A stretch of 44,072 nt of DNA, the filler included, from Jimgerdemannia flammicorona (Eukaryota), in NCBI GenBank assembly GCA_003990765.1. It is 2 parts of 2 records of this genome, joined end to end, with 100 filler letters (N's around TTAATTAATTAA, not from the genome) between each part and the next. Parts side by side here need not be neighbours in the genome. Positions count along the whole stretch, not along the records: positions 1 to 21,993 come from RBNJ01001352.1; 1 more part is not named here. One strand, 5' to 3'. This document shows positions 1,299 through 34,589 of this stretch, in pieces (the first letter of the stretch is position 1; every line of letters starts with the position of its first letter). The position numbers and the translations under genes were made by a program. The notes below the pieces were generated by a model. That model saw only the letters and a list, made by a program, of their open reading frames with translations, was not told where the DNA came from and ran no database searches.

Positions 1299-1790
1299 AT
1301 TATCTGACTTTTGATAATATATAAATTATTATCTAAGTTAATTATTTGAAGAACACTGCCTGTTATATACTAAACTACCCTACTTTTGACTACAGATTTA
1401 TTAAAGAATTCTCTAACATTATAGACTCAATCTATAAACTCAACAAAAAAGATATCAAGTTCTGATAGATTGGTAGGCAATAAAAAGTATATGATGAACT
1501 CAAGATCAAACTGACCCAAGCACCCATTCTCAGAAGACCTGATTAGACTCAAGAATTCATCTTTTAGATAGATGTAAGTATATAAGAACTAGGAGCAGTT
1601 CTGGCTCAGAAGAAAGATAAAGTAGAATATATTATTACATATCTCAGCTAAGGAACTCAAAGAGCTGAAAAGAAGTATAAATCCTATAAGTTGGAATGTC
1701 TTGCAGTTATCTAAGCTATAGAGAAGTTCTACTACTATCTCACTGGAAGATACTTCACTATCCAGACAGACCACTCAGCCCTCACTTAGC

Positions 1791-1851
<61 letters not shown>

Positions 1852-1978
1852 GTTACTTGGACTTCCCTTTATTACCTCAATCTACATTAATAATACAATA
1901 TTACCCCCATCCTCTCACCCAATACCCCTTGGATCCCCCTCAACTCCCTCTACCCCTCTCTGTTAGAATACAACCTAG

Positions 1979-4900
1979 TTACCCACCACCTGGACCCTCC
2001 CTCCACTTTTCTGACACATATACTTCACTAATCTCTGGTATCTACCCCCATCAGGTCCCCACCCCTGCCACTAGCTATTCAAAATGTCCAATAGCAGTCA
2101 TTTCCACTATGCTACTCTATCTCTAATCCCTATCTGCTGACCCTTCCTGAATACATATAACCAATACCTAGCTAGCCCAACCCAAATTACCAGAGCCCAA
2201 CCCAGGGTCAGCCATTTGTCCCCAACCCCCCCCCACTAACCTGCAATGGAGCTCACCCCATCTCCCCCCTTCCCCTCCCACCAGGGCTCGCAGTCCTAGT
2301 CTATCAGCAATGTGGTACCAAAAAACCCCCAGAATGTCATACTCACCAAGCCATGTTCAGATATTTGAATCACTCCCCCTTCCTGTCCAACATCCAAACA
2401 TTCCTCACACTCATACTGGCCATCTGCCACCAAGTGTCCAGACCAAAAGTTCAGCATCACATTCTATCTTAGAAACTACTACCACACCACTCAGAACTTG
2501 GGGAGAGCTACTGCATCATCTGCTTACTCCAAGGCCAAAGCTCATTCCAGTTCCACCCCTTGCTGATCCCCACCCTCTACCATCCAGTAGGTCACAGGTC
2601 CCCCTCTAAGCCCCTCAAGTACTCCATATCATCACCAAGCTAAAAGTCCTCTATCAAGATACCACCTAACAGAAGCCTGTCCCATCTCTACATCTGTGGT
2701 CCCCAATCTCCCTTACCTTCATTGCCCTACCATTGAAGACCAATTCTCTGGGCACCATCTACCACCCCCCACCCAAAGCCCTTATACCACATCCTCTCAC
2801 TCCCATCCAGGGCCACCATTGCAAGCAGGTCACCAGATACACCATGGGGGGAATACTGGGCCTCCCACATCCTTTGCATAAGCAGTACCCACTCTTGTCC
2901 CCTTAACTCACTTGCCCTCTTCAGCCACCACACTTATAGGTAATGAAGACATTTGGGGAAGTCCACCAAGCCCAGTCTGCCACCCTCCACAGGTAGAGTC
3001 AGTACCTCTCATCCAATCTGACTTCACTGCTCTGTCCAGATCTATGTCCTTACCATCTTCAGAAGGTATCTGATCACTCATGCTGGAAAATCCAGATAGT
3101 ACCCCACATACCACAGCTTTGGCAGCCAATATACATTCAGCACCATCACCCTTCCTACCAAGGAAATATGTTGACTGCCCCACCATAAAAGTACATCCCC
3201 CCATACTAGGAGTCACTATTCCCATCAAGCGCAAAGAAGGAGAGACCCATATATAGAGAAGTAAATCCCCAGATAGTGAACAGGATCTCCTGCTGGCACC
3301 ACTATCCCAATCATATTACTACCAACTATACCTCCACCTAACACCATAGTCTCACATTTGTGCCAATTAAGTCTAGCACCAGAGCCTCTCTCATACTATT
3401 CCACAGTCTGCTGTAATTCCTCCACATCTGCCAATGAACCCAATCTAACTACCATATCATCTGCAAAGGTCCCCACCTTCCAATTAATCTCCAGAATATC
3501 TAAACCCCCAATTCGATGTCTGATCCTGTCCAATAGGGGCTCTAAGGAAAGGGCATACAAGATGGGTGACAAGGGATCCCCCTGCAGCACTCCATGACCC
3601 AGAGGGAAAGTGACCCCCCTGTGTCTATTGACCACCAAGACTGTCTGACTGTCCTCCAAAAGTCTGATTAACAACCTCCGGAACCCTGGTAAAATACTCA
3701 CCTACTTCAGCACCCCTTCTAGCCAGATCCTCTACACTCTATCATATGTCTTCTCCTGATCTAGAAATATCAGTCATCCATCAACCCTGGTAACCCGAGC
3801 CCCTTCAATCACTCTATGGACCCAGGCCATCCCATCACGAATCAACTAACCACCAACAAAACCTCTTTGCTCAACTCCCAGCACTTGCTGAGCGATCTCC
3901 CACAGCCTAGCCACCAAGACCTTTGTAACCAGCTTGCAGTCCATATCAAGGAGCATGATCAGATGCCAGTTCTTCTAATCTTCTCTTTACCCCTTATCTT
4001 TAAAGAGCAAAGAGACCAGCCCTAGATGCTGGCCCCCAATCTAAGTTCTAGACCAAAGAACCTCATCACATATCCCTGTCAACTCCTCCAACACTACCTC
4101 CACCCTGGCCATCTTTTTCCAAAAATCCCAGGGAAGGCCATCCTCTCCCAGTGCTGTCCCCTTGCTTGTCGAAGCCAGGACCTTGCAAATCTCCTCTCCT
4201 CTCACTCGGTCCCCCAGAGCCCCTAGACCCATCACTGGGTTCAGATGCTAATCCTCCAACTGCCATTCAATGTTCAAGGTATCTTCACCCCCTTCTTCCT
4301 TACTTCATAGGTCCTCCTAGCAGGATCTTAGCAATCCCAAAATTGCTGGAGTCCCCACTACTATCTCCCCATCCTCATCCAAAACACTATCCCACTGCTG
4401 CTTAGTTCTCTGCACTTGTAACATCCATAATAAAAACCGAGTGGGTTGCCCCCCCTCCTCCAACCCTTGCTACCTTAACCTTGTTACCATCCCCTTCAAT
4501 GTAGCCTCTTCCTCCAACCATAGCACCTCCTTAAGTTTCCTGACCTCTGTTTGAATCCTTACAATATGCCAGTCTATTACATACCTCTCTATCTTCTAGT
4601 ACCCCTGCCCATCTCTCCAGGAGTGTTGCCAGCCTCTGCAAGGCCCAGTGTACTCTCTGCCACCACTAAGCACTCCTCCCTTTCTCTGCCTCCCTCTAAT
4701 ATCCCTGAGCACTTGATTTCAGCCTTCTCCAATGATCCCCAATCACCAGGCCCCACTCCCACCATTGACTGATTTTTCCAATGACCCCCATCTCCCAATC
4801 AGCCCATAAATCGCTATCCTTCAACAAAGAGAAATTGAGCTGCCAATATCTAGGCCCATCCCCACTTCCCCCAAACCTCCCCCCCCCAAGCAAACCTCAG

Positions 4901-5580
4901 TGATCAGATCATGGATACCAAACCACCTCCAGCATAGCCCAGACACCCACTTCCCAGCATTCCACTGTCAGTATCCAGTCAATTCTAGAGCCCAGCCCAG
5001 CCACCCAGTGAGTATAAATTCAACAATCCTCTCAGAACTGTCTCTCTGAGTCCACCAAAGAGCTCAACCTTTCCATCTCCATCCAACCATCCAACCTGCC
5101 ACTTTGACCCTTCATCTCTCTCCCACCATTGGTCTGGTCCATTACATTATCTCTTACTATGTTGAAATCCCCCCCCAGGCATTCAATTTCAGCCTCAACC
5201 ATAACACCAGCCTCTTGCAAATTCCTGATCCAGTCCACCTACTCCCCCCTGTCTGCTAGGTAATAATATGACCCAACCATCAAAGGGCTCCAACCAGGCC
5301 TCTTCTACACTTCCTATACCAACCGACTCCCTCAATGTCCTATATCACCAATGCCCTCCATCCCCTTTCGAACTAGGATACCCACTCACTCAAACTACAC
5401 TGCCACTCTCCCCCACTCTCTAGTCCAATCCAGAAAGTCCACATCTGCCTTATAATGTATATCCTGTAGTAAGAAGAGATCCACATCCAGCCCCTTGAGC
5501 TAACCAAATATAAACCTTTGCCGAGCCACCCCCCTCAACCCATTTATGTTCAAAGAGAATATTTTAGTTATACTATTCAT
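1979..5580 (-). pseudogene. LINE ORF2: APE endonuclease + reverse transcriptase (stops and frameshifts)
   Basis: Motifs MNSITKIFSLNINGL..LQDIH, GGDFN, RIDWIL, SDH, DQEKTYDRV, GVLQGDPLSPILY and FADD. The 3' end is approximate. Confidence 0.92.
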
Positions 5581-7417
5581 ATTGAATAATGTTTGAATGT
5601 GATAACTCAGCCTAGTACTCCATGCTCATCTCATCCCCAGTCAGATCCAATTGCTACTCTGCTTCCAAGTCCCCCTTCACTACAGCCTGAGCATCCAATA
5701 CCTCCAAGATTTCCTGACATTCCACCCCATCCACCACTTCTATCTCTGCCTGATAGTCTGCACAGACCACTCTCCACTTCTCCAATCCCTTCCTTGATCC
5801 CTACAAGTAAGCCACCCTATTATTCACAATCTCCTGGAGTTCCTCCTCTCTCTGATCATCGACCTGATATTCAACTGATTCTAATAGTACTATCAGGATC
5901 TCATTCCTAACCTTTCTTGATACCTCCTCTCCATGAAGAATTTCCTTCCAATGCCTTTCTTCCATAACCTAGAAGTCCTCTCTCCCCAGCTTCTCTGCTG
6001 CCACCTCTTCCAAAGTCTTCTATAGCCACTTCTCCTCATCTACTACCTCCACCATACCCTGGGCAATCTGACCATCTCCCACCCCTAGGTCCACCAAAGT
6101 GCTCCTCCTCACCAACTCATCCCACTCCTTATCTGGGATATCCAGTAACTCCTCCTCACCCTCTGCTCCCTCAGAGACACTATACTGAGGTCAGACTCCT
6201 TTGCTCATCTCTACATCTGCCTCCATACTGCCCTGCATCTCCTCTCTTGGTCTGACCTGGGCCCTATCTCAAGCCATCCCACTTCCTCCCACCCAGTCAC
6301 TCACATGCAATCCTGCTATCCCATTCCCTGTGCTACTGCCAGCCCCACTACCACCCAACTTCGCCAGCAGCTTCTTCTGGATTCTCCTCCCTTGCATCTT
6401 CTCCCAGGTCACCTTGTCCACTCTGGTCCTCTTCCCTTCAATGACTTCCACCACTATCTTCACTTCATACTTCTGCCAAGCCAATCTCCTCCTCTTGACC
6501 ACCCCCTCCAGGTCCTCAAGAGCCTCAAGCAAATCTTTCTCCTCCTCTAGAGACCCCTTCACTCACATGACCTTACACTCTACTAGTCCCTACTTTAGAG
6601 TCACTGGCCAATCCCTTGTCTTTCCCATGTTCTCCTTTCTGGCCAGCCTCACCCAGACATCAATGTCACCAGTCCTGAGCTCCATTCCTTCCCAGACCTT
6701 GAACCTAATATCCACAATCTCCCCATACTCCTTGACCGCCCCCACAATCAGCTCTCTGGCCCTCTCCCTTGACACTATAGGAAGATCCAACACTGTCAAC
6801 TACACCACTTGGGGGTCCCAGCACATACACCTAGCCATAGGGACCACAACTTCACCCACCATCACCCCCTTCTCCATAGCAGCCAACAATGCTTCCTCTT
6901 CCTCAAACTCCACCTCAACTCCTTCTTTCCCCTTCAAAAACTTCACTGATGCTGTCCCCTTCGCCTCCTGTACCACTAGTCTCAAGATCATCCTCACAGT
7001 CATTACCAAGCCCCTGAAGCACATCATGATGGCAAATTCCAACCTAGATTTCTTGAGTAACAGTGCCGACACCATGCCCGTCACCCCATCTGCCAGGTCC
7101 CTGGGCCTCATGCCCACCCTCTGTCCTGATTCATCAACTGCCATCACATCTGGATTTTTTGCCAGATCCCCAGTCACAGCTCCATCAACAGTCACATCAC
7201 CAGCTCCTACTCCCCCCCCTCCCCTACCACTGGACACTCTCCTGGGTACTCCTCTCTGACTTCCAGTAGTAGCTATTGATGCCTTCCCCAGTCCCAGCCA
7301 ACCATCCAGATCTGAGATCATCCTCCTCATCTTGACCTTGTCAGCCAAGGTCAACCTCTCCCCTCCTCACTGTCTCAAGCCACCCCTCCCTCTACCACTA
7401 GTGTCTTGGCCAGCCAT
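5573..7417 (-). pseudogene. LINE ORF1 (gag-like, degenerate)
   Basis: In-frame fragments 6800-7354, 6590-6799 and 6269-6562 are separated by single stops. The final stop overlaps the ORF2 ATG. The start is approximate. Confidence 0.75.
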
Positions 7418-7782
7418 CGAGGCCCCTGGCATCCCCAAACCATCTTCTCTCCTTTCCACCTATTGCCAGCCAAAGGCACCACTGCCCCCCTGGCCAGTAT
7501 GCTCACCAGTTCAATCATTGCCATCTATGTCAATAGTTGTCTGTTATCAAAAATGTTGAAAAAGTATTGTCTGAGTCTTGTGTCACCTGAATGGTACTAG
7601 TGAAAGATGTGTGGCCCTCACTTAGCTACCAACTACTGGGTAACCCAAAGGAATCTATACTAGATAGATTATGAAGTTATAAGCCTATAATATAACTATT
7701 GTACACTACTTTGGAAGAACTAATACCAATATAGATGCTCTCTTATAGATACTTCAAAGGACTTCTAACCAGTAAATCAATC

Positions 7783-8966
7783 ATGAATAAGGAGCTCTAC
7801 TATTGAATTATCATCTATCTGAGATAGTGAAAGATATCCTAACATCTGAAAGAATGAATATAAAAAATTATCAATAGAACATATAAATAATTTAAAACTG
7901 ATAAAGAAATACTGAAAAAAGAAAAACTACTAGTCATACTTAAATATAAAAAGAAGCAAGCAATGAAATCAGTATATGAACTTAGCTATCTAAGAGAAAT
8001 AAATATATATGATAAAGTAAGAAAAACAATACAGTGATCAGAAATAGAGAAAGATATCAGATAATTTATCAAGACCTATAATAAATACCAGAAACAGAAA
8101 CAAGACCAACAAAATCAAGCTCCTGGATTAGTATACATAGAACTAGTACCCTTTGTATATATTGCAATAAATATAATTAGCCCCCTACCCTTGACTTTAA
8201 ATAGCAACTGATATATTATTATTATTATAGACCTTTTCACAAAATAAATAGAGGCAGAACCCCTCAAAGAAGCCAATATATAGTCAATTACCAATTTCTT
8301 TTATAAAAAAATCATCTGCTAATTTACGACTCCAACATAAGTAACAACAGACAGAGGAATAGAATTTATGAATTAGTTCTTTGAGGTTCTCTATAAGAAG
8401 TACAAGATCTAGTATATTTGGACTATAGCCTATTACCCTCAGAAAAATAAATAAGCAGAAAGAACTAATAAAACTCTCAAGAATGTCATCATCAAGATCT
8501 GCAATAATTATGAAAACTGGAACCACTAGCTATCAATAGCATTATCTGCTCTCTAAGATATCTAATTACAAAGTACCTATTTTACCTCTTGGGAGATACT
8601 ATTCAGAGAAGAAAGTTCTCAAGAAATCTTATTGTCCAATAGAGATACTATATAGATATAGAGATATGGAGACTATATCAAATTAGAAAGAAGGCTGAAG
8701 ATTATATAACTAAGATACAGGTACTATAACAGAATAATGTGAAAAAGTTTTATAAGTCTTTAGAGATTATCAAGATAGAAGATAAAGTCTTAATATATCA
8801 GAATATAGTAGAAGCTTTATAGTCATAAAAGCTGGAGCCTAAGTGAGAAAAATCTTACCTTATACAAGATATAAAAGGAACTACCTTTTAGTTATAAAAA
8901 CTTTCAAGTATAATTATCTCCACTACTACTCATCAAAATCAACTCAAGAAATATCATGACCAGTAA
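7783..8966 (+). pseudogene. Integrase of element A (separate ORF)
   Basis: Starts MNKELYY. Shows a degraded HHCC zinc finger, IDLFTKIIEA, TDRGIEF, AERTNKTLK and KLEPK*..NQLKKY. Confidence 0.88.
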
Positions 8967-8974
8967 GCAAAGTA

Positions 8975-9392
8975 ATGACATTGCTCTCAAGATTACCAGT
9001 TACCCAACAAGCCATAGAAAGACAGTAGTATTCTACTGAGTTACTAACTATAGAGAAATCCTTCAATAGTATCCAGAGTATAGTATAGATACATCTATCA
9101 CAAATCTCATATTTTAAGATCTATCAGAACTAAACTGAGTTTTAAAAATACTTCAAGTTAAGATAGCTACCCAGAAATGAAAAAAGAAGATTATATTAGA
9201 GAATGTCAGCTCTCTTATACTCAGATTACTATTGCCAAAAGAGTATATAAGTTATTCAAAGAAGGTGAAACAGCTCTAGCTTATTTCTGAGAAGTAGCTC
9301 TAAGAGACTTTGGGTACATCAAAAGATAATATTGAGAGAACATAATAGCACAAATTATATAGTATAAGGAGATTCAATTGATTGAGGCTTAG
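8975..9392 (+). pseudogene. Accessory ORF between integrase and 3' LTR of element A (unknown function)
   Basis: YPEMKKEDYIRECQLSYTQITIAKRVYKLFKEG..RDF aligns without gaps to the accessory ORF of element B. There is a probable frameshift near 9160. Confidence 0.65.
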
Positions 9393-9441
9393 GAGTTTGA
9401 ATAGAATATTTCAGAGATAAATTACCTATTTAGGAGAAAGT

Positions 9442-9906
9442 TGTGATAGTTGATCCAAATTAGAAACATAAATCAGGAGAATAGATATTTAATTATAGTA
9501 TCTGAATCCAATTTCCAAATATAGTATAGTCTTATAAAAGTAGTCATATTTTGCAAATATAGAAAACTTTAGCAAATACTAAAGATTCTACAGATACTGA
9601 AATTCTTACAATTACTAAAGATTCTGCAGATATTGAAAAAATACAATACTTGTAAAAAGTGACTTATAACTCAACTACCTTATGCTAGCAAACTTGTATA
9701 AATATCTCAGTATCTAGAGTAAATAAACCTCAGATTAAAATAGTTTAAAGTAAAGAGAAAGCAAGAGAACTAGTAAGCCTATAGGCAGATATACTTTAAA
9801 CTCACCCACTCCTATATCTCAAAGACTCTATAGAGTCAAAGAAGATCAAGTTTTCAAAATATAAAAATTCAATATACTTATATAGTTATGTATCTGCTAT
9901 ATTATA
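9442..9906 (+). repeat. 3' LTR of element A (~465 bp)
   Basis: Begins TGTGATAG right after the polypurine tract and ends TATTATA (mutated TATTACA). Confidence 0.88.
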
Positions 9907-10738
9907 ATAGTAACTTTCTCAACTTATAAGGCTATAGTAGTATAAAGATCTTCAATTTTATAGTATTCTTTATTAGTAAGAGTACTGTCTGAGTTATGAT
10001 GATCATTTTATCTATTAGTATAGTAATTGATATCTATTTACTTAATAAATACTATTACTTAATTTGATTTTTCTTTAAATAATATAAGTTAAAGATCTTT
10101 CATTAGTTTATTTACTTTGATATTGAGATGAAGAGCTTAGATAAGAATTATTACTTAATTAATAAGAACTACTATTTTATTATTAATAGAAGTTATTTTA
10201 TTATTCTTATTATAATATAGTAGTAATAGTCTTATTTTAGATATAGTTATTTTAGAGATATTACTAGTATTAGAATATATAGTTACTTTTTCTATAATAT
10301 TACTAAGATAGATAGATAAATTTGATAATTAGGCCATAAGTTAGTAGTCTTAATAGAATTATTGCTAAATTTTCTATAGTAATTTATAATAACTTAATAT
10401 TCTTAATAGTAATTATATAATAGTACTAGAGTTACTAATATTAGATTTTGATATTTCTGTAATTATTTACCTAGATTAGAATAATATAACTAAGGTTTTA
10501 CTAAGTTTAGTAATCTATAATTCTTAGTATTAAATTATTTTTATCTATATAGAAAACTCAGTAATAAAGATAGAATTTTCATTAGTTGGTATAATATTTC
10601 TTATAGTTTAAGAAAATCTTAACTTAGTAATATATAGTTATCTTTAGAGAAGTAATTTGAAAAATATTTACTTATAGCTTTGATAGATTCTTAAATATAT
10701 TTTTCATAAAAGTAACTACTCTAATATCTTTGATATAA

Positions 10739-12325
10739 TATCACATAGTGGTTGCTGAGTTCTTCAAATATATCAGATTCTCTCCAAGGTATATCTTTTA
10801 GACTAATCTCAAGTTTGTTATAAACAAGTTCTTATTGGAGTACTTTTCCAAGATCTTATAGTTCTCAAACTTCTTATCTTTAAACTGTCTTATTATCTCT
10901 TAGATTGCTTATATAGAATTGAGAGTAAGTGAACTAGAACTGAGTTTATTTTAAAAAAAATAAGAGGGGTATTTATATAAAATATAATTTAATAGTTACT
11001 AAGTTATAAAGCTAAATATAAATTCCAATAACTAAATAAAATACTGGAATACAGAAAACTATAGTTGTAAGTACAAGTTTAAGTATCTGTATAAATAGTT
11101 ATACAAGTTTAGAATATGAGTAGAATTTCAGTAGTACAGGAAAAGGATACCAGAAGAATTCTGAGTTATACAAGATCAGAATATCTAGTAGAATCTAGTG
11201 TTACCAAGAACTTAAAGCAGAAAGTTCAGAACTATGAGAGCTTCATCTTTGTCATTATTATCAAGACCAGAGGTCAGAGACAGAATATCTTTGAAGGAGA
11301 TGAGATCTACAAATATTTCATCTATTTCACATATGTTATATATTTTGCATGCTTTGTACATGTCACACAGGATGATGTCATCACCAATGACATCATTATA
11401 AGTGATGTCATCTTATTTGGCAGTAGTAGAGGCTCTCTAATCTATGACATTCTCTTCTACAAAATAAAGAACAAATGTAGGGTCTTGGAGAGGTCTAACC
11501 TGGATACTAGGGCCTTGGAATGCTGAGATCAATCTTTGTATAAATTGATCTGGGTTGTCCTGAAGGATGAGATACTAGAAGTCTTCTACTTCATTACTAT
11601 TGAGGATAATAGTAGACTGAGCCTCTGTAGCCACTATGACCTCCAGTACATTGGTATGGTAGGTGGACAGTTCCTTGAAGTCTGAGATCCTAGTATACTC
11701 TAAGTTGGGGATTGACCATAGTATATGCCAGAAGATCTGATGAATCTTCTTTGCTATCCTTATTTTATGTATATCTATGGAGATAGTATCTTGAATCTCC
11801 TGGAGACTGGCCTGAGGAAACTTCTAACAGAAAAGGTTTCTTATTTCATACTTATGCTATATCCAGAGGTATTCAGTAGCAATGGTAATCCTTATTTCCA
11901 TTTCATAATAGTAGAAGATATAATAATAAGGGTTGTTAGTACCCAAATTGATGCTAGGAGTCCTTATTATGTATGTAAGTCTTCATGGCTCTTCTGATGT
12001 CTTGGAATATTCTTTTCTGGACTGAGGGGCCTTAGTGATTTCTAGACCTTGAGGTTTGACAAGTGGCAGGTATTTGTTTGTAGTAAGTCTTTAAAACTAT
12101 TTCTGTAAGCTTTATTTGAGCTGCTACTACTACAGTTTCTTGATCCTTCTTTTATATTTCTCAAGGTATCTGTCTTGTAGTCATAATGACTCACAGTTAA
12201 TTATTATCACTCATCTTATAGTCTAGATGAGTCATATCATATGATCTTCTTATGCTTCAATCTGATAGCTTATAAGGAAAAGCTGTCTCCTATACTGATG
12301 TTATCATTCTGAAGTCACTATTATA
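10739..12325 (-). repeat. 3' LTR of element B
   Basis: Colinear with 18009-19593. Minus-strand TATA box near 10970 and AATAAA at 10945-10950. Confidence 0.95.
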
Positions 12326-12634: not shown

Positions 12635-13884
12635 GCTGTTATAATTCACAGACTAGAACCTTGTGGGTGGTTATCATATTTTGCTTCTCTTATATAGGTT
12701 CATAGTACTTCTTGAGTCTGTTCCTATATATTGTGGTAGGCAGTATAGTCCTTGAGAGTTTTCTAAGCCAGAAGGTAGTTTTCTTAATATTTTATACATA
12801 GAAGAGTCCTTCCTATTTGAGCTTCAGTTTTTGTGACCATGAGGCTTCTACCATGTTTTGATACAGTAGGATCTTTTCTCTGATTTGGATGAGTTCTAGG
12901 GTCTTGTAATTCTTCTCTGCATTCTTCCTTATTAGTACTTATAACTTGATGATATAATCTTCAGCCTTCTTTCTGATTTGGTGTAGTCCCTGGATTTCTG
13001 AGTCAACTTGTCTCCAAGTTAGGTCTAGACTTGTGACTGAGGTTCCATCAGAATCTTCTTCTCTAAAGAGCAGTTCTCTTGGGGTAAAGTGTGTACTCTG
13101 TGACCATATATCTTATGGAATAGAGAGGATAGTTGGGAGATAGTTATCCCAATTGTCATATATATCTGAGATCTTTGCCAGGATGTTCTTGAGGGTCTTG
13201 TTAGTTCTCTCTATCTGTCCATTTCCTTGAGGGTGATATGTGGTGGTCTTGATATACTGGATCTTGTATTTTTAATATATTATCTCATAGAATCTATTGA
13301 CAAATTCTGTACTGTAGTCTGTGGTGATTTGCCTTAGTGTCTTATAGTGGCAGATGATTTCTTGATGCAGGAAGTCAGCTATAGAGAGGATATTGACTTC
13401 TTGTAATACTCCTACTTCTATCTATTTGATAAAGAGATCTACAATAACTATAATATAGCAGTTTCCTGATAATATCACTAGTAGCAGTCCAATAATATCT
13501 ATTACAATGGTGGAAGGGGATAGGCTCAATTCTTGATAACCTGGGTATCTGGTCCTGCTGATCTTATTTCTGTTTTTGGCACTTGTCATACCCTTTGACA
13601 AATTGGTGCAAGTCTTCCTCCATCTTAGACCACTATATGATTCTTCTTGATTTATCATATGTGTTGGTTCCTTCTAGGTATTCTTGTTCATGTACTTTCT
13701 TCATTACTTGATACTTCTTGTATTCAGATATTATGAGTTTTCCTCCTTTTTTGAGTGTAGTGTTGTCTAGTTCAAATTATTTCCAAGTCTAGTTGATAAT
13801 AGTAATAGTCTAGGGTTTGAGGTGGTTAGATATCCTCTGCTACCCAAGATAGCTAATTAATCCATAGTATAGCTCCTTATTCAT
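12623..13884 (-). pseudogene. Integrase of element B (separate ORF)
   Basis: Starts MNKELYY. Shows an HHCC remnant, IDIIGLL..IVIVDLF, YHPQGNGQIERTNKTLK and a GPF-like K*EGLFYV..NRLKKY. Confidence 0.9.
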
Positions 13885-15350
13885 ATTGAATAGTCTTGAT
13901 GGGGGTATTTCAGGATGTTCTTGAGAGTGTATCAGTATTGGCATTAGTTCTTCCTAAGTGATACTTAATAGTACAGTTATACTCTTATAGTCTATAGATC
14001 TATCTGGCATATATTCCTTTAGGATTCAGAGTATAGAATAGCCAGGTGAGAGCAGAATGGTCTGTTTGAATAGTGAAGTATTTCCCAGCTAGGTAGTAGT
14101 AGAACTTATCTACTACTCAAACTACTACTAAGTATTCGAGTTTGAATGACTCATAGTTCTGTTCTGCTCTGTAAGTATCTCAGCTTACATAGGAGATAAC
14201 ATATTTATATCTATCTTTCTTCTGAGCTAGGACTGCTCTAAGTCCTATAGCACTTACATCTGTCTGCAGGATGAACTCTAGGTTCTAATCTAGTCTTCTA
14301 AGAATGGTACTTGAGTCAACCTAGTCTTGAGTTTATTGAAGGTTTCTTGGCATTTCTTAGTCTATTTGAATTTGGTCTCCTTCTTCAGTAGCTCATAGAT
14401 GGGTGCTGTAATATTGAAGTATCCTTTGATAAATCTTCTGTAATAGGAGACCAGTCCAAAGAAGGCATAAACTTCTATAGTTGTTCTGGGTCTTGGGTAG
14501 GCTGCAATAGCCGCAATCTTCATGGGGTCTGTGTGAATTTCAGTCTGGTTGATGAGATATCCTAGGTAGGCAATTTCCTGAGCTACAAACTTGTACTTCT
14601 TAGGCTTAATATAGAGGTTATACTCCTTGAGCTTCTTGAGGGCTAGCTGTATATGGTTAATATGTTTTTGTACAGTATTACTGAAGATGATCACATTATC
14701 AATATAGACAAGAGCCATTTTCCAATCTTATTGCTGAAGACTCTGTTCATTATTCATTAAAAACTTACTAGAGCATTACATATTCCAAATAGTATTCATA
14801 GATAGACATAGGTGATATTAGGTATAATGAAGGCTAATTTCTCACTAACATCTTGAGTGAGACCAATCTGATAGAAGCCTGAGAACAGATCCAAGGTAAT
14901 GTAGTATTTGGCTTTACTTTCAAGAGTGGTAAGAATTTTTTGAATATTTGGCAAGAGCTGCCTATTCTTCTTAGTAATTATATTGAGCTTTCTGTAATCA
15001 ATACAGAGTCTTGGGGCAAACTCTCCAGGCTTGCTTCCTTTCTTTGAGGTAAGGACAATAGGTAAAGCCCAGGGGCTGATAGCTTGCTTAATGATTCTAG
15101 CTTCTTCTATTTTCTTGAGTTCTGCTCACAACCATTCTCTGTAGGCAGATGGTATAGGTCTGGCTTTCTGATAGATAGGCTTGGTATTGCCAGTATAAAC
15201 TTCATGATAGTACTTGAGCTCTTAATTGTAGATGTCCTTGAAGTCTGTGGCAAGTACTCCTTTGTTCTGGTATAAGATCTTGAGAAATTGTTCCTCTAGG
15301 GGAAAGTTTTCTCCATTGATATATGTATACTTATTCTGATCCTTGTCTTT
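13877..15350 (-). pseudogene. Reverse transcriptase + RNase H of element B
   Basis: LCIDYRKLN, TLDLFSGFYQI, VYIDNVIIFS (YIDD mutated), FFGLVSYYRRFI, FILQTDVS and QTDHSALTWL. Confidence 0.93.
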
Positions 15351-15389
15351 CTTGTACTAAAGTTCAGTAATCTTGATAGCAGTATAGGC

Positions 15390-15810
15390 TTCTCTTCCAG
15401 TAAATCCAAAGTCTTGTTCTCCTCTTTTGGTCTTAATAAGTTTAATGGCTTCAGTGATCTTGGGCTTCTTAACTTCATAGATCAGCATCTGGTCAATCCT
15501 ATTATACTTCTTAACTTCAAATAGAGTAGTGGGGTTGTAATTCCTAACTATGGGGAAGATCTCACCAGTGTAATCAGAGTCTATTACTCCTCTTTCAACT
15601 GAGATTTTACTTTTAGCTAGACTGCTCTTGGTCTTGATAATTCTAGTATAGTTCTCTAGCAACTTGACTCCAATTCCAGTATCAAGTAGAGTAGTGGTCT
15701 GTGGTTTGAGGGTAGCATCTTGAATACTGGTAAGGTCTATTCTTATGGCTCCTTCAGTCTTATATTCTGGGATCTTAGCTTTGGGGTGAAACTTCTTAAT
15801 CTTGAGAGTG
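15390..15810 (-). pseudogene. dut: Trimeric dUTPase domain between protease and RT
   Basis: All five motifs are recognisable: GAIRIDL, KSSLAK, GVIDSDYTGEI, RIDQM and RGEQDFGFTG. Confidence 0.93.
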
Positions 15811-16149
15811 ATGTCTGGTTCATCATTGCTGTCAGCTTGAAGCTCTGAGAGCTGGTCATCTTCTTCAGCTTCTCTTTTTGCTTCAGCAATTTCTTGTTTA
15901 TACTTTTGTTGGTAGATTTTCCTGACTTTACTGATATAGGACCAGTAGTTATTTAGGTATTTAGAGCAGTACATCCTGGTACCATGGGGGTATCTTCCTT
16001 AAGGAGCATAATTATCAATGATCTTATTATACTACTGCTCATCTGTGAGCTTAGGTGTCTTGCTTTTGTTCTTATATACCAAGTGTATGAAGACTTCTGT
16101 ATCTTCTTCATCTTCTTCCTCTATGTCTGGTAGTACTTCTTTGTGGATA

Positions 16150-17888
16150 TTAATAAAGACTCATACTTTTCTTCCTCTATAGTTGATCTACATCTTCTGA
16201 ATATTGAGGTCAATGATAGTCTTGGCCTTGTGAAGCTATTGATTGCCAATGAGAATATCATAGTTAGTGGTACTTGTAACAATTATATTTATTGAGATGG
16301 TAGCTCCTCCTATCTTGATGGGTATTTCTCAGATTTTGCCTAGGGGGGTAGCTCATATACTATCTGCTATAATATAGACCATCTTGGTAGACTCTTCAAT
16401 ATTCCAGCCTAGGCAGTCAATTGCCTTCTTGCTTATGAGATATCCTCCAGCACCAGTATCAATGATGACATTAAAGATACAATCTTCAATCTGATATAGA
16501 GTATAGGCTGATATCTTGTACTGGTCTTCAGATTCTTCACCTAAGTCTTCAGATTCTTCTTATATATTGTGAGCTTCTACAATCTTGTACTCTTAATTCT
16601 TAGTAGTAGTTGCAAGTCCTACTCTCAACTTCTATCTGAAAGCAGGGACTTCAGCTAGTTGTCCAAAAGTAGCATTGACCTTCTATTTCTTGAGGTCCTT
16701 ATAAATATCATACTAGTGGATCTTAGTCTTGCATACCTTCTGTTTTTTCTTACTTTTACTTTTTCCTGAAACTGGAGTAGTGTCTTTAATAATTTGGTGA
16801 GCAGCTTCATCTAACTCCATGTCTTGATCAATCTCTTCAGATTAGGTCTTGCTTTGGATAATGATAGCTGGAGTCTTCTTTGGTCTTCCAACTGGCTTAC
16901 TGTTGCTCTTCTTATTATAGAGCTTGGACCAGGTTCTGGTACCTTCAGTAATAGGGTAGAATTCAGACTCTTTGTAGTATTCTTCATCATTAATATTACC
17001 AATCTTCTTAATGACTACTATATTGATTTATTCTCTAGTTCTGGTAGTATTACTTGGTTGGGCTTTGTATCTTATTTCAGTTATGCAACTCTTTGCATAG
17101 TGGCCTTCTTCTCTATATCTAAAGTATGTGATATTATATTCTTCTGTAGTAATTACAAATCTCTATACTAGTCTCCTGTTGGTACTTCAGACTTCTCTAA
17201 TAACATCACTAAGGTATATAGTCATCTCAGTAAACTGCTTGGTGAGTTTCTCTACTAGATCAGCTTTGGCTATCTTGGGGGTAGGTGGGGATAGTTGTCT
17301 GTTTACAACTGTGGCAGATATGATACTGGTTGGCTTTGATGGCTCTATCTTAATGCTAGTTATTTTCTTTATTGAGTATTCAGTAGAGTATCTAGCAGTC
17401 CAATATCTCTATATAAAGACCACTTTCTGGTCAAGGGTCAGAGCAGCTAGGGTAGACTGGATTTCTAGGGCAATTTCAGAGTGAACTTCTTTGAGGAAGG
17501 TTGAATTCACTATTTGGTTCTTGAGGCAGTCATAATAGCCAGCTAAGACAATCTGGTAGCAGATTTAGGTATAGAATGAGTTGGAATCTTCACTGAGTCT
17601 CTGGCAGATAGTATTGAGTTGATCCTTGAGAGCTTACTTGATCTCTTTAATATAGTATATAGTTCTGAAGAAGTTCTTCATGTTGGCAAGTTTGGCTGCA
17701 CCAGCATCAGCAATAGTGGCTGCATTGAACTTATCTCTGGCAGATCCTCTGAGGCTAACAGATAGAAGAGCCAATTATGCATCTATATCAAGAACTTATA
17801 TAACAGTAAATTGTTCAAAGTCTTTAATAAAGGTCAGAATTAACTCTTCAGTAGTATATCCATAGAATGTAGAGGGATAAATTTTCAT
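16150..17888 (-). pseudogene. Gag + aspartic protease of element B
   Basis: Zinc knuckle YFRYREEGHYAKSC (CCHC with TGY>TAY) near 17094-17135. Protease VIIDTGAG and ILIGN. The gag ATG is in frame with the dUTPase ORF. Confidence 0.85.
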
Positions 17889-18008: not shown

Positions 18009-19593
18009 TGTTACATAGTAGTCACTGAGTCCTTCAAATACATCAGATTCTCTCTAAGGTATATCTCTTAGACTAACCTCAAGTTTGTTATAAGCAAGTT
18101 ATTATTGGAGTATCTTCTTAAGGTCTTATAGTCCTCAAACTTCTTATCTTTAAACTGTCTTATTATCTCTTAGATTGCTTGCATAGAATTGAGGGTAAGT
18201 GAACTAGAACTGAGTTTATTTCAAAGGAAATAAGAGGGGTATTTATACAAAATATAATTCAATAATTACTAAGTTATAAAGCTAAATATAAATTCTAATA
18301 ACTAAATAAAATACTGAAACACAGAAAACTACAGTTGTAAGTACAAGTTCAAGTATCTGTACAAATAGTTACACAAGTTTAGGATGCCAGTAGAATTTCA
18401 GTAGTACAGGAAAAGGATACCAGAAGAATTCTGAGTTATATAAGATCAGAATGTCAGAAGAATTACAGTTATATAGAAAAAAAATGCTGGTAGAATCTGG
18501 TGTTACCAAGAACTTAGAGCAGAAAGTTCAGAACTATGGGGGCTTCATCTTTATTACTATCATTAAGGCCAGAGGTCAGAGATAGGATATCTTTAAAGGA
18601 GATGAGATCTATGAATGTTTCATCTATTTCACATATATTATACAGGATGACATCATCACTGATGATGTCATTATAGGTGATGTCATCTCATTTAGCAGCA
18701 GTGAGAGCTCTCTAATCTATAACATTCTCTTTCACAAAATAAAGAACAAATGTAGGGTCTTAGAGAGGTCTAATCTGGATACTAGAACCTTGGAATACTG
18801 AGATCAATCTCTGTATAAATTGATCTGGGTTGTTCTGGAGGATGGGATACCAGAAGTCTTCTACTTTATAACTATTAAGAGTGATAGTGGACTGAACCTC
18901 TGTAGCCACCATGGCCTCTAGTATATTGGTACAGTGAGCAGACAGTTTCCTGAAGTCTGAGATCCTAGTATACTTCAAGTTGGAGATTGATAGCGCATAC
19001 CAGAAGACCTGATGAATCTTCTTTGTTGTCTTTATTTCACATATATCTATAGAGATAGTATCTTGAATCTCTTGGAGACTGGCCTGAGGGAACTCCTGGC
19101 AGAGAAGGGTTTCTATTTCATACTCCTACTATATTCAGAGATATTCAGTAGCAATAGTGATCTCTGTTTCCATTTTACAGTAGTAGAGGATATAATAATA
19201 AGAGTCACCAGTACCCAGATTGATGCTAGAAGTCCTTATTGTGTAAGTCCTCATGGCTCTTCTGATGTCTTAGAATATTCTTTTCTAGACTGAGGGACCT
19301 TAGTGGTTCCTGAATCTTGAGGTTTAGTGAGCAGCAGGTATTTGTTTGTAGTAAGTCTTTAGAACTATTTCTATAAGCTTTATTTGGGCTGTTGCTACTG
19401 CAGTTTCTTGATCCTTCTTTTATATTCCTCAAGGTTTCTATCTTGTGATCATAATGACTTACAGTTGATCATTATCACTCATCTTGTAGCCTGGGTAAGT
19501 TATACCATATAATCTTCTTGTGCTTCAATCTGGTAGCTTATAAAGAAAGGCTGTCTCCTATGCTGATATCATCATTCTGAGGTCACTATTATA
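18009..19593 (-). repeat. 5' LTR of element B (carries a second copy of the U3 ORF segment, 18688-~19590)
   Basis: Colinear with 10739-12325 and ends TGTAACA on the minus strand. Confidence 0.95.
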
Positions 19594-20804
19594 ATAGATA
19601 ACTTCTTTATTAAATACTATAAATATATTAAATACTTCTTATATATATATTCTCATTATTAAGTTTGTCAAATTTCTCTTAGCTAGTATAGATTTTAGTC
19701 TATATAGTAATAATCTTATTAGTCTTTTTAGCTTAATTCTAAAGAGTATTCAGATTGAAGGTATTCTTGACTAATACTATTAATATATAAGTGATAGAGA
19801 TAATAATTATTCTGACTATAAAGTCTACTCACTTACTATAGATCTAAAAGAGTTTATTATTTAATAATTCTATAGCTTTACTAAAGCTAAAATTAAGCTT
19901 AAGAATCTCTAATTTTATAATAATAGAAAAAAAGATCTAAAAGTATTTACAATAAGACTAAAAACTCTCTTAAATACTATAGAAGTTAAGTATTATTGAT
20001 ATGATCAAATAGTAAATAGAACAAAAGTATTATACTTCTTTAATAATATATTAAATTGATTGTTTGAAAAGATTTATAAGTAAAAAAGACTCTATAATGA
20101 CCTATATAAATAATGATATCTTGAATAAACTGTTACTAGAACTTATATTATCTTAGTAGTTCAAAGATCAAGAGATAACAGAGATAATAACATAGAGGAG
20201 ACAAATGATACTAATTTGAAAAGAAATATAAACTATGAAATAACTCTTAAAAATATAAGAAAAAAAGAGTATATATATTTCTACTATAAGAAGATTAGAT
20301 ATATATCCCACAACTACTTTGATGAAAAAAAAAACAAGACTACTATAAGTAAAGAATTATCCTTTTTATATAATCACTATGATAGAAGATAATTCTAAAA
20401 GAATAATAGAAAAGATTAAGATCAAAAGATTTTATATTAATATTAAGATTTCAGATAAACTATATAAATCTGATACTAGCTAAAATCTATACTTAAGTAT
20501 AAAAATAACTATTAAATCAAACAAATAAATAACTATCAGTATTGATATTAGTATAGAAGTCTCTAAAGAAACCTATATTTATCTTATTGAAAGAAGTAGT
20601 CTAGTTAAAAAAAAAAAGACTCTATATAGCTAGAGGAGTTGTAAACTAAGGTTTTAAAAAAGAAATTAAAATCTTACTATATAATATATAATATAAGCTG
20701 ATTAAAATTATATAGGAAATATATTACCTTATCTATTATTAAAGTCATTTATAATAATTTCAAAGTAAAAGAAATAAATGAGTTATTATTCTCTAATAGA
20801 AGCA

Positions 20805-21244
20805 ATATAATCAAAACTTATAGACTTGAGTAGTAGAGTATTGAAAATCTCCTCCCACCTCATATATAGAGAGAACTAGATCCTACTCACTATTCTGTAC
20901 TTTGAAAGGAGGTTTTCTTTATTTGTTACTCTATTTAGAGTAACAGAGACTATTTTATTTAGCTTAGATATAGTCTTATATATATATTGAGATTTCAGAT
21001 ATATGTCTTCAGTTATTGATATATATAGTTGCTTTCTTTCTAGTAGTAGGGAGAGTATAATATATAGAATGAGATATGAGCTACCATAAGCCCTATTGTA
21101 TCTAATATAGTTAAGCTACTAGATAATAGCTAGCTTGGGTTTAATAGAGGTATAATACTCTTAGAAGGTAGTGGGAGAGAATTTTGACCTATATAGTCTA
21201 GATTTCTTCTATTAAAAATCTGTAGGACTTCAAGTCTATTTAAA

Positions 21245-21254
<10 letters not shown>
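20805..21254 (+). mobile_element. Poly(A)-tailed SINE-like or 5'-truncated non-LTR element, copy 1, followed by (TA)n
   Basis: Homologous to the reverse complement of 22094-22553. Ends CCTATATAGTCTAG..A-tail. Confidence 0.75.
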
Positions 21255-21288
<34 letters not shown>

Positions 21289-21554
21289 ATTATTAAATTT
21301 AAAAATCAAAATAAAGATATTGATATATTAAAATCTCTTCAAATTATACTATTTATAATTACTTCAAATTGATTTAAATTGACTTATTTGAAATACTATA
21401 TATATATTATTAATGAAAAAAGATAAAGATAATAATTTCTCTAAGCTATTAAAGAATAAAGATGATGAGAAAGATAGTCTACCAGAACTATTAAAGAAAT
21501 ATGAAGATACTTTTCAAGAATCTCAAGACTTATTACTTATCTAAGTAGTAAAAT

Positions 21555-21832
21555 ATATAATATCAAACCAAATGAATTAAATTAATTTGAATCAAATTCA
21601 AATTAAATTAAGAGTCCAATTCAATCTCTATTTTTTGAAATATAATAACTCTATAAAAATATATCTAAATTTAATGATATTTAGCTTATTAGATTTCTCT
21701 TATATAGAGGAATCTAACAAGCTAATGATTATTAATTTTTGGATATAGTTTTATAGAGTTATTGTATTTTAAAAAATAGAGTTTAAATCAAATCTTGAAT
21801 CAAATTAGACTTTTGATTCATTGGGAGTACTA
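21555..21832. mobile_element. Foldback/MITE with a ~156-bp near-perfect palindrome (21626-21781)
   Basis: ~75-bp inverted arms around a TATAT loop at 21701-21705. It interrupts the host RT reading frame. Confidence 0.8.
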
Positions 21833-21993
21833 ATTAAAACTATCTCTAGTATAAATTCTCTTTACTATAGAATCTATTGTTCAACTTAGTCTAAGCTTAA
21901 GATCTTTAAGAAATAACTGACAGATCAATTGAATAAATATCTTATATACTCTTTAAAGTTACTATATAGTATACTAATTCTCTTTATTTATAA

Positions 21994-22093
21994 NNNNNNN
22001 NNNNNNNNNNNNNNNNNNNNNNNNNNNNNNNNNNNNNTTAATTAATTAANNNNNNNNNNNNNNNNNNNNNNNNNNNNNNNNNNNNNNNNNNNN
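21994..22093. other. Artificial contig spacer
   Basis: Exactly 44 N + TTAATTAATTAA (stops in all six frames) + 44 N = 100 bp. Confidence 0.95.
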
Positions 22094-23258
22094 TTTAAAT
22101 AGACTTAATATTCTATAGATTTTTATTGGAAGAGAACCTAGACTATATAGGCCAAAACCCTCCCCCACCACTCACTAAGCACTACCCCCTCATTAATCTA
22201 GGCTAGCTATTGTCTAGCAGCTCAACTATATCAGATGTAGCAGGGCTTATATTGGTCTACACCTCATTCTGCATACCATACTCTCCCTACTACCAGGGGG
22301 AACCCAGTCATATGCCAATGACCAAGAGTGCATGCCCAAGACCCTAACATATATACAAGGCTATACCCAAGTTAAATAGAATAGTCTCTATCACCACAAA
22401 GAAAATGACAGGCAAAGAAAAAACCCTCATCAAAGTACAACATAGTGGGTATGGCCTGGTTCTCCCAGTCAAGGTGAGTAAAGAACTTATATGTGAGGTG
22501 GGAGAAGACCCCCAATACCCCACTGCTCAAGTCTGCAGGCCTCGATCACATTATCATATCAGCTCTCAGTTCTAGTTAAGTGTAGCCAAGATACCTAAAA
22601 TGAGTAGCCTTGGGCCCCCCAATAACTGGGGCCCAACTCACCAAATTGCCAAAAGAAGCTGAGAGTGATATCTACCATCTAACCATACTATATCAATCAA
22701 AAGGCCCCACTGAAGCAGCACCTGCCCCAGCCCTAATGATTATCCCCAGTCTAACACTCTACTGGTTCACCATAATTACTCTTCTACCTATCTATAATGG
22801 TCATCTCCTCTTCCATCCTGATAATATCCAAAAAGCTGTCACCTATGCCAGAACTGTGCTCACCAGAAAGCTTGCCAAAGCCAGAGGGCCCCACCACAGA
22901 TACTGAGAACCTACAGGTAATCTATACTGAGCACTTTATGCCCAAGGTCAGCTGACTCCCTATATAGCCTATGACATACTGAGACAGTATCTTGTTGGTG
23001 ACAGCAAAAGGAAGAAGGTGCCACACTAAAACAAATATACTTCAGACTCAGCCAAAGGCATTAGAAACTGCAAAAAAGTGAAGAAGACACTGATCTGACA
23101 CTGATAAAGGGGCAACTCATCACTATTGTCTCCCTCTCACTATCCTGCAATAGGTATAGTAAACCAACCTGAGGTAGAGGGGATAATAATTGTAGAAAGT
23201 AGACTTGGAAGGTCACCTATCAAACTATTGTAACTGGTAAGGTAGTAGAGAAAAAAAA
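22094..23258 (-). mobile_element. SINE-like/non-LTR family, longest copy (~1.16 kb), inserted in a Copia protease
   Basis: 3' end shared with the other three copies. Copia homology stops abruptly at ~23259. The 5' boundary is inferred. Confidence 0.6.
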
Positions 23259-31449: not shown

Positions 31450-31745
31450 TTTTTTCCCACTACTCTTCCTCTTGTTTATGTTTCTCTATTTGTACTCCCT
31501 TGTTTGTACTTTCTTGTCCATACTCTTTTATTTATACTCTCTTGTTTGTGCTCTCTTATTTGTACTCTCTTATTTCTGCTCCCCTGTTCATGTTCTCCTA
31601 TTTGTTGTGCTCTCCTGTTTGTGCTCTCTCATTTGCACTCTCTTATTCATACTTCCTCATTCATACTTCCTTATTTGCACTTTCTTGTTTATGTTCTCTC
31701 CCTTATTTATATTTTCTTATTTACACTCATCTATTCTTACTTCTG
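31450..31745. repeat. Degenerate pyrimidine-rich ~14-16-bp tandem repeat
   Basis: Recurrent TTTGT(A/G)CTCTC units. Confidence 0.7.
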
Positions 31746-31959
31746 TGAAATCTTACCAGATACTTGAAGGAATTATTTCTAGATAGCTTATCTCATTTCT
31801 TACTACTCCAAAAAAGACTCCAACAAATCTGTTATCTATTTCTCCCTGCTGAAAGTAGCTCAAAAAAGCTCCAATTTAGGTCAGTTTATATTAGTTCATA
31901 TCAGCTAGTTTACACCAGTTTATAGTATGGATACCTATCTTTTTTAGAGCTCATTTTTG

Positions 31960-32330
31960 TCACACCTTGCTCTGCCTCATTTCTCTTACTCTACCTTATT
32001 TCTCTTACTCTGTCTTATTCCCTCACTCTGTCTCATTCCCTCACTCTGCCTCATCCCCTCACTCTGCCTTGTCTCCTCACTCTGCCTCATCTCCTCACTT
32101 TGTCTCATTCTCTCACTCTGCCTTATCCCCTTACTCTGCCTTATCCTCTCACTCTCCCCTCACTCTGCCTCATCCCCTCACTCTACCTCATCCCCCAACT
32201 CTGTCTCATCCCCCACTCTGCCTCATCTCTCCACTCTGCCTCATCCCCTCACTCTGCTTCATCCTCTCACTCTATCTTATCCCCTCACTCTGTCTCACCT
32301 TGCCTCATCACTCTGCCTTATCCTGCCTTG
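31960..32330. repeat. 18-bp minisatellite CACTCTGCCTCATCCCCT
   Basis: Roughly 20 diverged tandem units. Confidence 0.9.
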
Positions 32331-32636
32331 CTATCTATTCTGGTATTCTAGCTCACCATCTTGCCAACCTGTCTTACCATCCCATTCTTGCTACCTCATT
32401 CTTGTCACTCTGTTCTCATCACTCCATTCTCATTACCAATTATGTCTTATTATCTACATCAGTACATCATCTGAGCATACTGTCTCACTATTCTTTTCTC
32501 TATTCTTAGGTATGCCTTGATACTTATTTCAGATATATTATATTTATTCTATATTATATACTTGCTTCTTACTATAGCAGTAACTCAGCTATAGCAGTGG
32601 CTTGCTCATAGAGGTGGGGGTGAGGGTGACTTAGTA

Positions 32637-33080
32637 GCTGGTCATAGGAGTGTCTCATAATCTATACTGATAACATACTCTCTTACTCAAGGAGGATCTC
32701 TCACAGCTGGTCTCTGGCATCTTGTTCCAGATAGCATCTGCTTTGATGGAGGCTGGTCAGAGGGGTGTCTTCTGATCTGTACTGACAAAGTACTCTCTCT
32801 CTCAAGGAGGATCTCTTACAGCTAGTCTCTGGTATCTTATTCTAGATAGCATCAGCTTCAGTAGAGGCTGGTCAGAGGGGTGTCCCCTGATCTGAACTAA
32901 TGAAGTACTCTCTCTCTCAAGGAGGACCTCTCATGGCCAGTCTCTTATCATTCTGTCCCAGGCAGCATCAGGCTCAGAGGAGGCTAGTTGGGAGAGTATC
33001 TCCTGATCTGCACTAACAAAGTACTCTCTCTCCCAAGAAGGATCTCTTATAGCTAGTCTTCAGTATCCTATTCTAGATAG
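32637..33080. repeat. ~115-bp tandem repeat, about 3.8 units
   Basis: Units start at 32637, 32752, 32867 and 32983; the core is TACTCTCTCTCTCAAGGAGGATCTC. Confidence 0.9.
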
Positions 33081-33114
33081 TTTCTTTATTTTTTTTCATA
33101 ATTGACTATACTTC

Positions 33115-33400
33115 TGTCTTGCCAGTTTCTCATCTGCTAGTTTCTTATCTGCCAGTTTCTCACTTGCCAGTTTCTTGCCTGCCAGTTTCTCATCTACCAG
33201 TTTCTTATCTGCCTGTTTCTTGCCTACCAGTTTCTTACCTATTAGTTTCTTGTCTATTAGTTTCTTGTCTGCCAGTTTCTCATCTGCCAGTTTCTCATCT
33301 GCCAGTTTCTTGTCTATCAGTTTCTTGTTACTGGTTTCTTATCTGCTCATTTCTTGTCTGCTGGTTTCTTATCTATCAGTTTCCCATCTGTCAGTTTTCT
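33115..33400. repeat. 15-bp minisatellite CTGCCAGTTTCTCAT
   Basis: About 19 units, probably a 5-aa repeat of a decayed minus-strand ORF. Confidence 0.9.
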
Positions 33401-34589
33401 GGAATGGGAGACAATTTTGTCTCTATTGACTTTGACTTGAGTAAATTTCTGACTGCTTCAAGGCTGGAGTTGGAGGCTGTCCTGTCAATACTTACTACTC
33501 TTTTGTCTGGCAGGGCTACTCTCAGGCTAGATTTTGAAAAACTACTAGAACACAATATCTTGGAAAATATTTTAGACTCTCTGGCTTATGTTGTCAATAT
33601 GAAGCATAGGATTGATATACTTCAGGAAGTATTCCAGAGCTCTTATCATGAGGGGTTGTCTGAGCTGTAGTATTTCTGCTTTCCTGGGAGCCCCCTCTTA
33701 GCAGGTCTGAAGATATATAACTAAATTTTTCAGTATCTTCCAACTGTTAAGATGAGATTGGGTAATTTCTAGACATGATTTCAGAGAGAGCTGGGTATGT
33801 TCATTAATTGCAGGTTATTGATAAGATTATTCTATTTTTATTTAATTTTTCAGAAAGCTAAAAAGGACTGGTATAAAGTGTAATTAGTGGGTTTTTTGAA
33901 TTAACAGTAGCAATACTGGCAAAATCAATAAGATCTTAAAGCTAAATTTGTTCAAACCTAGTTCCAGATTCCAAGTTTAATAGATTTCAAAATATTGAGA
34001 ATTCCAAGGCTCAATCTCACAGTAGAACAAACTACTATGCTCTATATACAAGATCCTGAGAAAGTTGGACATCAATATCCCATCATGTTCTCAGAAAAAA
34101 GAGATCAAAATTGATTTTGAACTGTAATATTTTTGGAGTCCTCTGATTTGCCAACTGGTATTCTGAATTCAAATTGCAATTATATTGTCCTAGATACTAA
34201 TACTAAGGAAGTTATTTTGATAGTTTAGAGGGAGATGTTAAGAGATCAGATAAGTCAGATCTTGATAGATGTTTGTAAGAAGACATTCAAAGTTTGATAA
34301 GCTGGATTATATGGTAAGGCTCAAGCTAGAACCAGGTCTTATGTATCAGCTAGTTATATATGTTAACTTATACTGATAGAATATATTACTATATCATACC
34401 TCTCAATAATTTCATACTAAAAATTGAACAAGATAAATGAGAGGAATATGAAATAATAGTTATAGAGCTTGTTTCACCTCTCTTCACTACCTCTTACTGA
34501 ATGTAGTATCCAATTCATCAACTTTATACAATTTTTGATCAGTTTAACACCCCTTAATATCTACCTCCAGACACTATTTCTGAGAGCAT

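Follow-up and report, generated by a model that had tools for sequence, protein, structure and literature searches.

The integrase of Ty3/Gypsy retrotransposons is normally cut from the Pol polyprotein, and in long terminal repeat (LTR) elements and orthoretroviruses it is this polyprotein that doses and packages the enzyme. Two elements, A and B, in a 44,072-nucleotide stretch of Jimgerdemannia flammicorona DNA (assembly GCA_003990765.1) lack the usual Ty3/Gypsy arrangement of an integrase in the Pol frame released by the protease (PR); instead, integrase occupies a separate open reading frame (ORF) whose ATG overlaps the stop codon of the RNase H (RH) frame. The whole stretch, here called the window, consists of two parts joined by 100 filler letters, with positions 1–21993 lying on one contig (RBNJ01001352.1) of the 231-Mb assembly. 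The split is real and is explained neither by chance nor by decay of individual copies.

By their LTRs, domain order, and sequence the elements are assigned to Ty3/Gypsy. They have direct LTRs, a primer-binding-like site after the 5′ LTR, the order Gag-PR-(dUTPase)-reverse transcriptase (RT)-RH-integrase, and an integrase with H2C2, rve, and GPY/F regions; the best sequence match in PDB is the Ty3-G Gag-Pol. The position of the dUTPase, between PR and RT, is shared with PosPlaTy3-5, as described in part of PMC2864245. They differ from Ty3/Gypsy elements in that integrase lies outside Pol with its own AUG, Gag to RH form one frame, and most lineages carry an extra ORF (ORF3). No chromodomain match, a chromovirus trait, was found in integrase P0157, which ends ~55 residues past the GPF motif. 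Gmr1-like Gypsy elements were excluded because integrase lies downstream of RH here and upstream of RT in Gmr1. A search of mostly open-access literature, with Repbase, GyDB, and the supplementary structure table of PMC2864245 outside its scope, found no paper that describes integrase as an ORF of its own in an LTR retrotransposon; within that literature the split layout is apparently undescribed.

The two junctions and the frames that meet there are located as follows.

13877–13884, minus strand: element B start/stop overlap, ATG-AA-TAA (integrase ATG 13884–13882, RNase H stop 13879–13877)
13877–17888, minus strand: element B ORF1, Gag (with zinc knuckle)-protease-dUTPase-RT-RNase H, one frame in intact relatives
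12639–13884, minus strand: element B ORF2, stand-alone integrase of 415 codons, with N-terminal helix, H2C2, DDE core, and GPF
7783–7790, plus strand: element A start/stop overlap, ATG-AA-TAA (integrase ATG 7783–7785, RNase H stop 7788–7790)
7783–8966, plus strand: element A ORF2, stand-alone integrase, decayed here and 397 codons long in less-mutated copies

These coordinates bear out the original prediction, which read the RH frame of B as ending TAT GAA TAA with integrase beginning ATG AAT AAG in the +1 frame at 13884, described the same layout in A (CAT GAA TAA, ATG at 7783), and noted that both integrases begin MNKELYY. The two integrases are ~75% identical; because A and B are such close sisters, they do not count as two independent cases. 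The window is a decayed transposon field, nearly devoid of CpG and heavily altered by C-to-T change, a pattern that makes a fungal host likely, and its copies of both elements are dead: ORF1 of B has stops and two private frameshifts, near 14720 and 14300, and its integrase is decayed, with a private frameshift near 13550.

Other copies in the genome retain the junction. Thirty decayed loci per element, drawn from the top 40 DNA matches of the junction in question, keep the ATG in 26/30 and the TAA in 28/30 cases for B and in 22/30 (ATA in the other eight) and 30/30 cases for A. Among the least-mutated B copies (an intact integrase gave 97 protein matches, of which the best 30 were taken), TAA is present in all 30 and ATG in 28, with two ATA, against a background in which 3.2% of the Q, W, and R codons of the integrase frame appear as stops; the integrase match is stop-free in five of the 30, and several copies have 200–380 open RT-RH codons running up to the junction stop. 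The junction is likewise present in 21/21 least-mutated A copies, three B-type loci having been excluded from that set. That the TAA arose by C-to-T mutation in individual copies was ruled out, since T is found in all 30 least-mutated copies and an adjacent CAA keeps its C in all 30. A third family of the same genome, C, has an integrase ~38% identical and an ATGA junction with a –1 offset in 28/30 loci, the other two being cut by contig ends.

It could be argued that the split is a defect of non-autonomous families that a fused helper amplifies in trans, or that it is an artefact of assembly or mutation. All window copies are dead and hypermutated, and 3/60 decayed copies (L014, L040, and L051) do join the two frames; each does so through a private 1-nt deletion, has lost the RH end motif, and contains stops. 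Catalytically complete, full-length integrase frames have been retained, however, independent assemblies concur, and the relatives described below offer no fused counterpart, so that we regard a defect or artefact as very improbable indeed.

Metagenomes yielded 41 loci. The close group comprises 16 of these: in nine the RH-integrase junction can be read, four begin inside integrase, and three have no RH upstream. All nine readable junctions are split (L091, L092, L093, L095, L096, L097, L099, L100, and L102), and in L093 an intact 1,493-codon Gag-PR-dUTPase-RT-RH frame is followed by ATG-AA-TAG. A search with RT-RH gave 6,753 hits; among the 120 listed, none of the 31 with at least 45.9% identity has a downstream integrase, and 29 of these end within 29 residues past the match, most of the 31 being known as proteins alone, with truncation possible for each. 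At 44% identity or less, the listed hits are mostly fused to integrase. A quick RT tree (named reference elements left out; deep nodes weak) unites 20 integrase-less rows, family B among them, in one branch with a support of 100 in the Shimodaira-Hasegawa-like approximate likelihood ratio test, and a second integrase-less group of 12 plus one more row join weakly (61). The second group of 12 consists of Gag-PR-RT-RH proteins (P0269–P0286), known from proteins alone, that lack dUTPase as well as integrase; two of them, P0274 and P0279, carry a tail of ~215 residues.

As a control, RH and integrase lie in one open frame in 30/47 outgroup loci; the other 17 appear decayed or gapped, and none of them could be shown to have such a junction. 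No fused RH-integrase member was found inside the clade among the relatives examined, scans of viral contigs found no relative, and a scan of prokaryote genomes found distant outgroup elements only. These comparisons place the split as old and ancestral to a clade of Ty3/Gypsy relatives. The proposal that it is ancestral thus extends to the whole clade: it holds in the least-mutated copies of B and A and in the nine metagenome loci, and no intact member with a continuous RH-integrase frame was seen. A clade that has long been without integrase in Pol needs other means of dosing and packaging the enzyme, a question that its intact relatives make directly testable. Annotation pipelines that read the stop between RH and integrase as decay would misjudge such families as defective.

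The form of the junction bears on how integrase might be made. Its initial methionine is invariant, at the same position in 19/19 aligned clade proteins (27%–53% identity to the first), and conservation begins there; gene callers favour methionine starts, and the same ATG is seen directly in the DNA loci. The offset between the two frames is –1 (ATGA) in family C, L091/L092, L096, L100, and L102 and +1 (ATG-n2-stop or ATG-n5-stop) in A, B, L093, L095, L097, and L099. In an integrase tree a single branch (support 96) unites the +1 lineages and arises from among the ATGA lineages, which implies that the frame has switched while AUG and stop were kept together. In 9/10 lineages the stop ends a long ORF and is out of frame with the ATG, the distance to the first base of the ATG being 1, 5, or 8 nt; L102 is the exception, combining ATGA with a decay stop that comes earlier. 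The last stretch of the RH frame, an unconserved tail of 13, 15, 22, 22, or 40 codons, is open right up to the AUG, for which the chance in a neutral linker is roughly 0.001–0.002 (five lineages treated as independent; a guide only).

Start and stop within ~20 nt of each other, out of frame, after a long ORF, is the layout of coupled termination-reinitiation, and AUGA, AUG-n2-stop, and AUG-n5-stop are among the arrangements reviewed for it in passages of PMC5972666 and PMC10275272. The same passages give such overlaps after a long ORF for caliciviruses, influenza B virus, the victorivirus HvV190S, and the hypovirus CHV1. Retrotransposon enzymes translated from a second cistron by stop-start coupling are also known, SART1 and LINE-1 ORF2 being the examples in part of PMC5972666; those elements are non-LTR and couple ORF1 to the RT ORF, whereas here integrase is the only part that has become separate, and downstream of the junction no structure was found.

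We consider it fairly probable that integrase is made by termination-reinitiation at the RH stop. Integrase is a cistron of its own, with an AUG overlapping the stop of a single Gag-protease-dUTPase-RT-RNase H frame; in this model, ribosomes translating the full-length RNA would terminate at the ORF1 stop and reinitiate at the integrase AUG, which would stand in for the protease cut that normally frees the enzyme. Restarting at low frequency would lower the ratio of integrase to Gag, as frameshifting does elsewhere, and integrase made in cis may enter the particle by binding genomic RNA or Gag. If so, this would be a nonviral and apparently TURBS-independent (termination upstream ribosome-binding site) reinitiation, after a frame of 1,300–1,500 codons. 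It is favoured over subgenomic RNA and frameshifting because the methionine is invariant, the offset varies, and the stop stays on the ATG despite tails of 13–40 codons. This route is inferred from the layout, and neither a TURBS motif nor a common RNA fold was found.

The original prediction named three possible routes: stop-start reinitiation, frameshifting, and a subgenomic RNA. The first fits best, the second is disfavoured, and the third remains the second candidate. A programmed frameshift near the end of RH, producing an RH-integrase fusion at low frequency, would agree with the integrase frame of family B, which in 28/30 least-mutated copies has 47 stop-free codons ahead of the AUG. 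That open stretch is not conserved, however, falling to ~20 codons in L091 and L096, and a slippery heptamer is not evident by eye. Because the offset is +1 or –1 depending on the lineage, sister lineages would need opposite shifts, and a frameshift does not require an invariant methionine; on these two grounds we hold it to be quite improbable.

Several observations weigh against termination-reinitiation. No UGGGA-like motif (the TURBS motif of RNA-virus reinitiation, sought among shared 5-mers), common k-mer, or common complement to 18S rRNA was found around the junctions of the ten lineages, and no common RNA fold upstream or downstream of them (z scores from –3.5 to +2.1). Upstream of the AUG, A and B are unstructured and A/C-rich, as are the other +1 lineages. 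An A at –3 is found in 6/10 integrase starts taken alone, versus 47/132 (p = 0.17, not significant); the pooled value (p = 0.0007) is confounded by integrase coding across ORF3 starts. In the –1 frame any Met-Asn start produces ATGA as a matter of course, and the ORFs of a compact genome could stay adjacent whatever the mechanism. The overlaps at ORF3 are looser (1–44 nt), and families B and C have no clear ORF3 start on the integrase stop. Three loci of the close group (L101, L104, and L105), finally, have a stand-alone integrase with RH absent upstream.

Folding differs between the two layouts, the ATGA lineages having hairpin folds just upstream of the junction. A possible H-type pseudoknot in L091 (1490–1517) ends ~10 nt before the AUGA, and 1/200 shuffles folded as well; such a structure, resembling that predicted for victoriviruses, is plausible in L091 only, and none was found upstream of the junction in A, B, L093, L095, or L099. 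The top pseudoknot candidate of family C was rejected as implausible for its zero-length loops. Internal ribosome entry or shunting on the full-length RNA, independent of upstream termination, would also need the AUG and is consistent with the A/C-rich, unstructured stretch ahead of it in the +1 lineages; we judge it improbable, since there is no conserved structure and no reason for the stop to remain on the AUG.

A subgenomic mRNA for integrase, arising by splicing or from a promoter within RT-RH, with the overlap as mere compaction, would account equally well for the AUG and for the free frame offset. An A at –3 in six of ten starts agrees with it, and there are precedents in foamy virus Pol (part of PMC3705302) and plant Copia Gag (part of PMC5580714). 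Splicing to the integrase AUG is disfavoured, as in 6/10 lineages (A, B, C, L093, L099, and L100) the interval from the last upstream AUG to that of integrase contains no YAG acceptor; the upstream region is also U-poor, L093, L096, and L099 have an out-of-frame AUG only 34–35 nt upstream, and the open tails of 13–40 codons reaching exactly to the AUG are left unexplained. We therefore think a subgenomic RNA rather unlikely. In two read sets of unspecified kind all copies were mutated and none showed a joint at the junction; these sets have no bearing on expression. Foamy virus is instructive for packaging: an enzyme made apart from Gag needs to be taken up by binding RNA or Gag, according to sections of PMC3705302. 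There, whole Pol is made from a spliced RNA and integrase enters within the precursor, whereas in the present elements RT stays with Gag and integrase alone is separate.

Termination-reinitiation may recur further downstream, where element A has a second overlap.

8956–9404, plus strand: element A ORF3, 153 codons (ATG at 8956 overlapping the integrase stop 8964–8966, ATG-n5-TAA)

ORF3 of family A is decayed in the window; in L137 and L147 it is open. A second overlap is also present in eight metagenome loci, with an ORF beginning 1–44 nt ahead of the integrase stop, in three of them through ATGA; four of the eight ORF3 products are mutually homologous (E values from 1e-74 to 3e-4), and those of L093 and L106 are not clearly so. 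Where present, ORF3 would likely be made through a second restart at the integrase stop. Its product matched no Pfam family at cut-off, the top matches of an Atlas search were unnamed clusters, and none of 17 homologues carries a functional name; the predicted model has a pLDDT (predicted local distance difference test score) of 58, and the best structural match (Z = 5.3) is uninformative. In family B (L068 and L078) an open frame ~550–1100 nt past the integrase stop looks ORF3-like in its motifs by eye; it sits behind a frameshifted spacer, and an ATG lies 4 nt after the integrase stop.

Stand-alone integrases of Gypsy type are known from Ginger1, described in part of PMC2836005 as ~400 residues long with a motif of ~40 residues before the zinc finger; by eye, the N-terminal helix of the present integrases resembles the YPYY region of that description. 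They differ from Ginger1 in belonging to an LTR element with integrase behind RT-RH and without terminal inverted repeats or an OTU/Ulp1 domain. The stand-alone integrases of L101 (281–1543), L104 (301–1377), and L105 (68–1291) are AT-rich and of the same N-terminal type, and could be Ginger-like elements or long-spacer members; in the integrase tree (Ginger sequences not included) the branching order among L101, L105, the split clade, and some of the fused rows is not resolved, which speaks neither for nor against a Ginger origin of the integrase. It is possible, if somewhat doubtful, that an old and widespread LTR lineage has a tricistronic genomic RNA (Gag-PR-dUTPase-RT-RH, integrase, and a new all-helical accessory protein) translated by serial TURBS-free stop-restart, with free integrase packaged by a route new for LTR elements; the free integrase gene could then be the missing intermediate between Gypsy and Ginger-type elements.

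Apart from the split, element B is a whole Gypsy element (LTR, primer-binding-like site, Gag with zinc knuckle, protease, dUTPase, RT, RNase H, integrase, and LTR), and element A is without gag-PR and most of RT.

18009–18550 (start approximate), minus strand: element B 5′ LTR, ending in CA and followed by the primer-binding-like site TGGTGCCC at ~18005–17998
10743–11280 (boundary approximate), minus strand: element B 3′ LTR
1394–1795, plus strand: element A RT end with the greater part of RNase H, on the 5′ side of the LINE insertion
7614–7790, plus strand: element A RNase H C-terminal end with its tail of 13 codons, on the 3′ side of the LINE insertion
9581–9915, plus strand: element A 3′ LTR-like repeat (partner at 11–349, clipped by the contig start)

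The direct repeats of B are 10743–12325 and 18013–19593. The ~1 kb 5′ of its 5′ LTR (18550–19593, minus strand) is a repeat of the 3′ region of B itself, so that B was once part of a tandem array with a common LTR; locus L094 has the same tandem order (integrase, ORF3, then Gag), and contig C2228 carries two integrase copies 6.4 kb apart. A solo-like and less mutated copy of the B LTR lies at 43342–43857. Inserted in the RNase H of A, upstream of the junction, is a decayed long interspersed nuclear element (LINE; ~1796–7614, minus strand) with ORF1, endonuclease, RT, poly-A tail, and a 15-nt target duplication.

Elsewhere in the window, a caspase-domain ORF (41658–42227, plus strand; PF00656, E = 4e-10) lies in a CpG-normal region and is probably part of a host gene. 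Inverted repeats of ~430 nt at 20804–22552, on both sides of an assembly gap, possibly represent a non-autonomous DNA transposon, and positions 31469–34720 hold degenerate tandem repeats with units of 14, 15, 18, and 115 nt.
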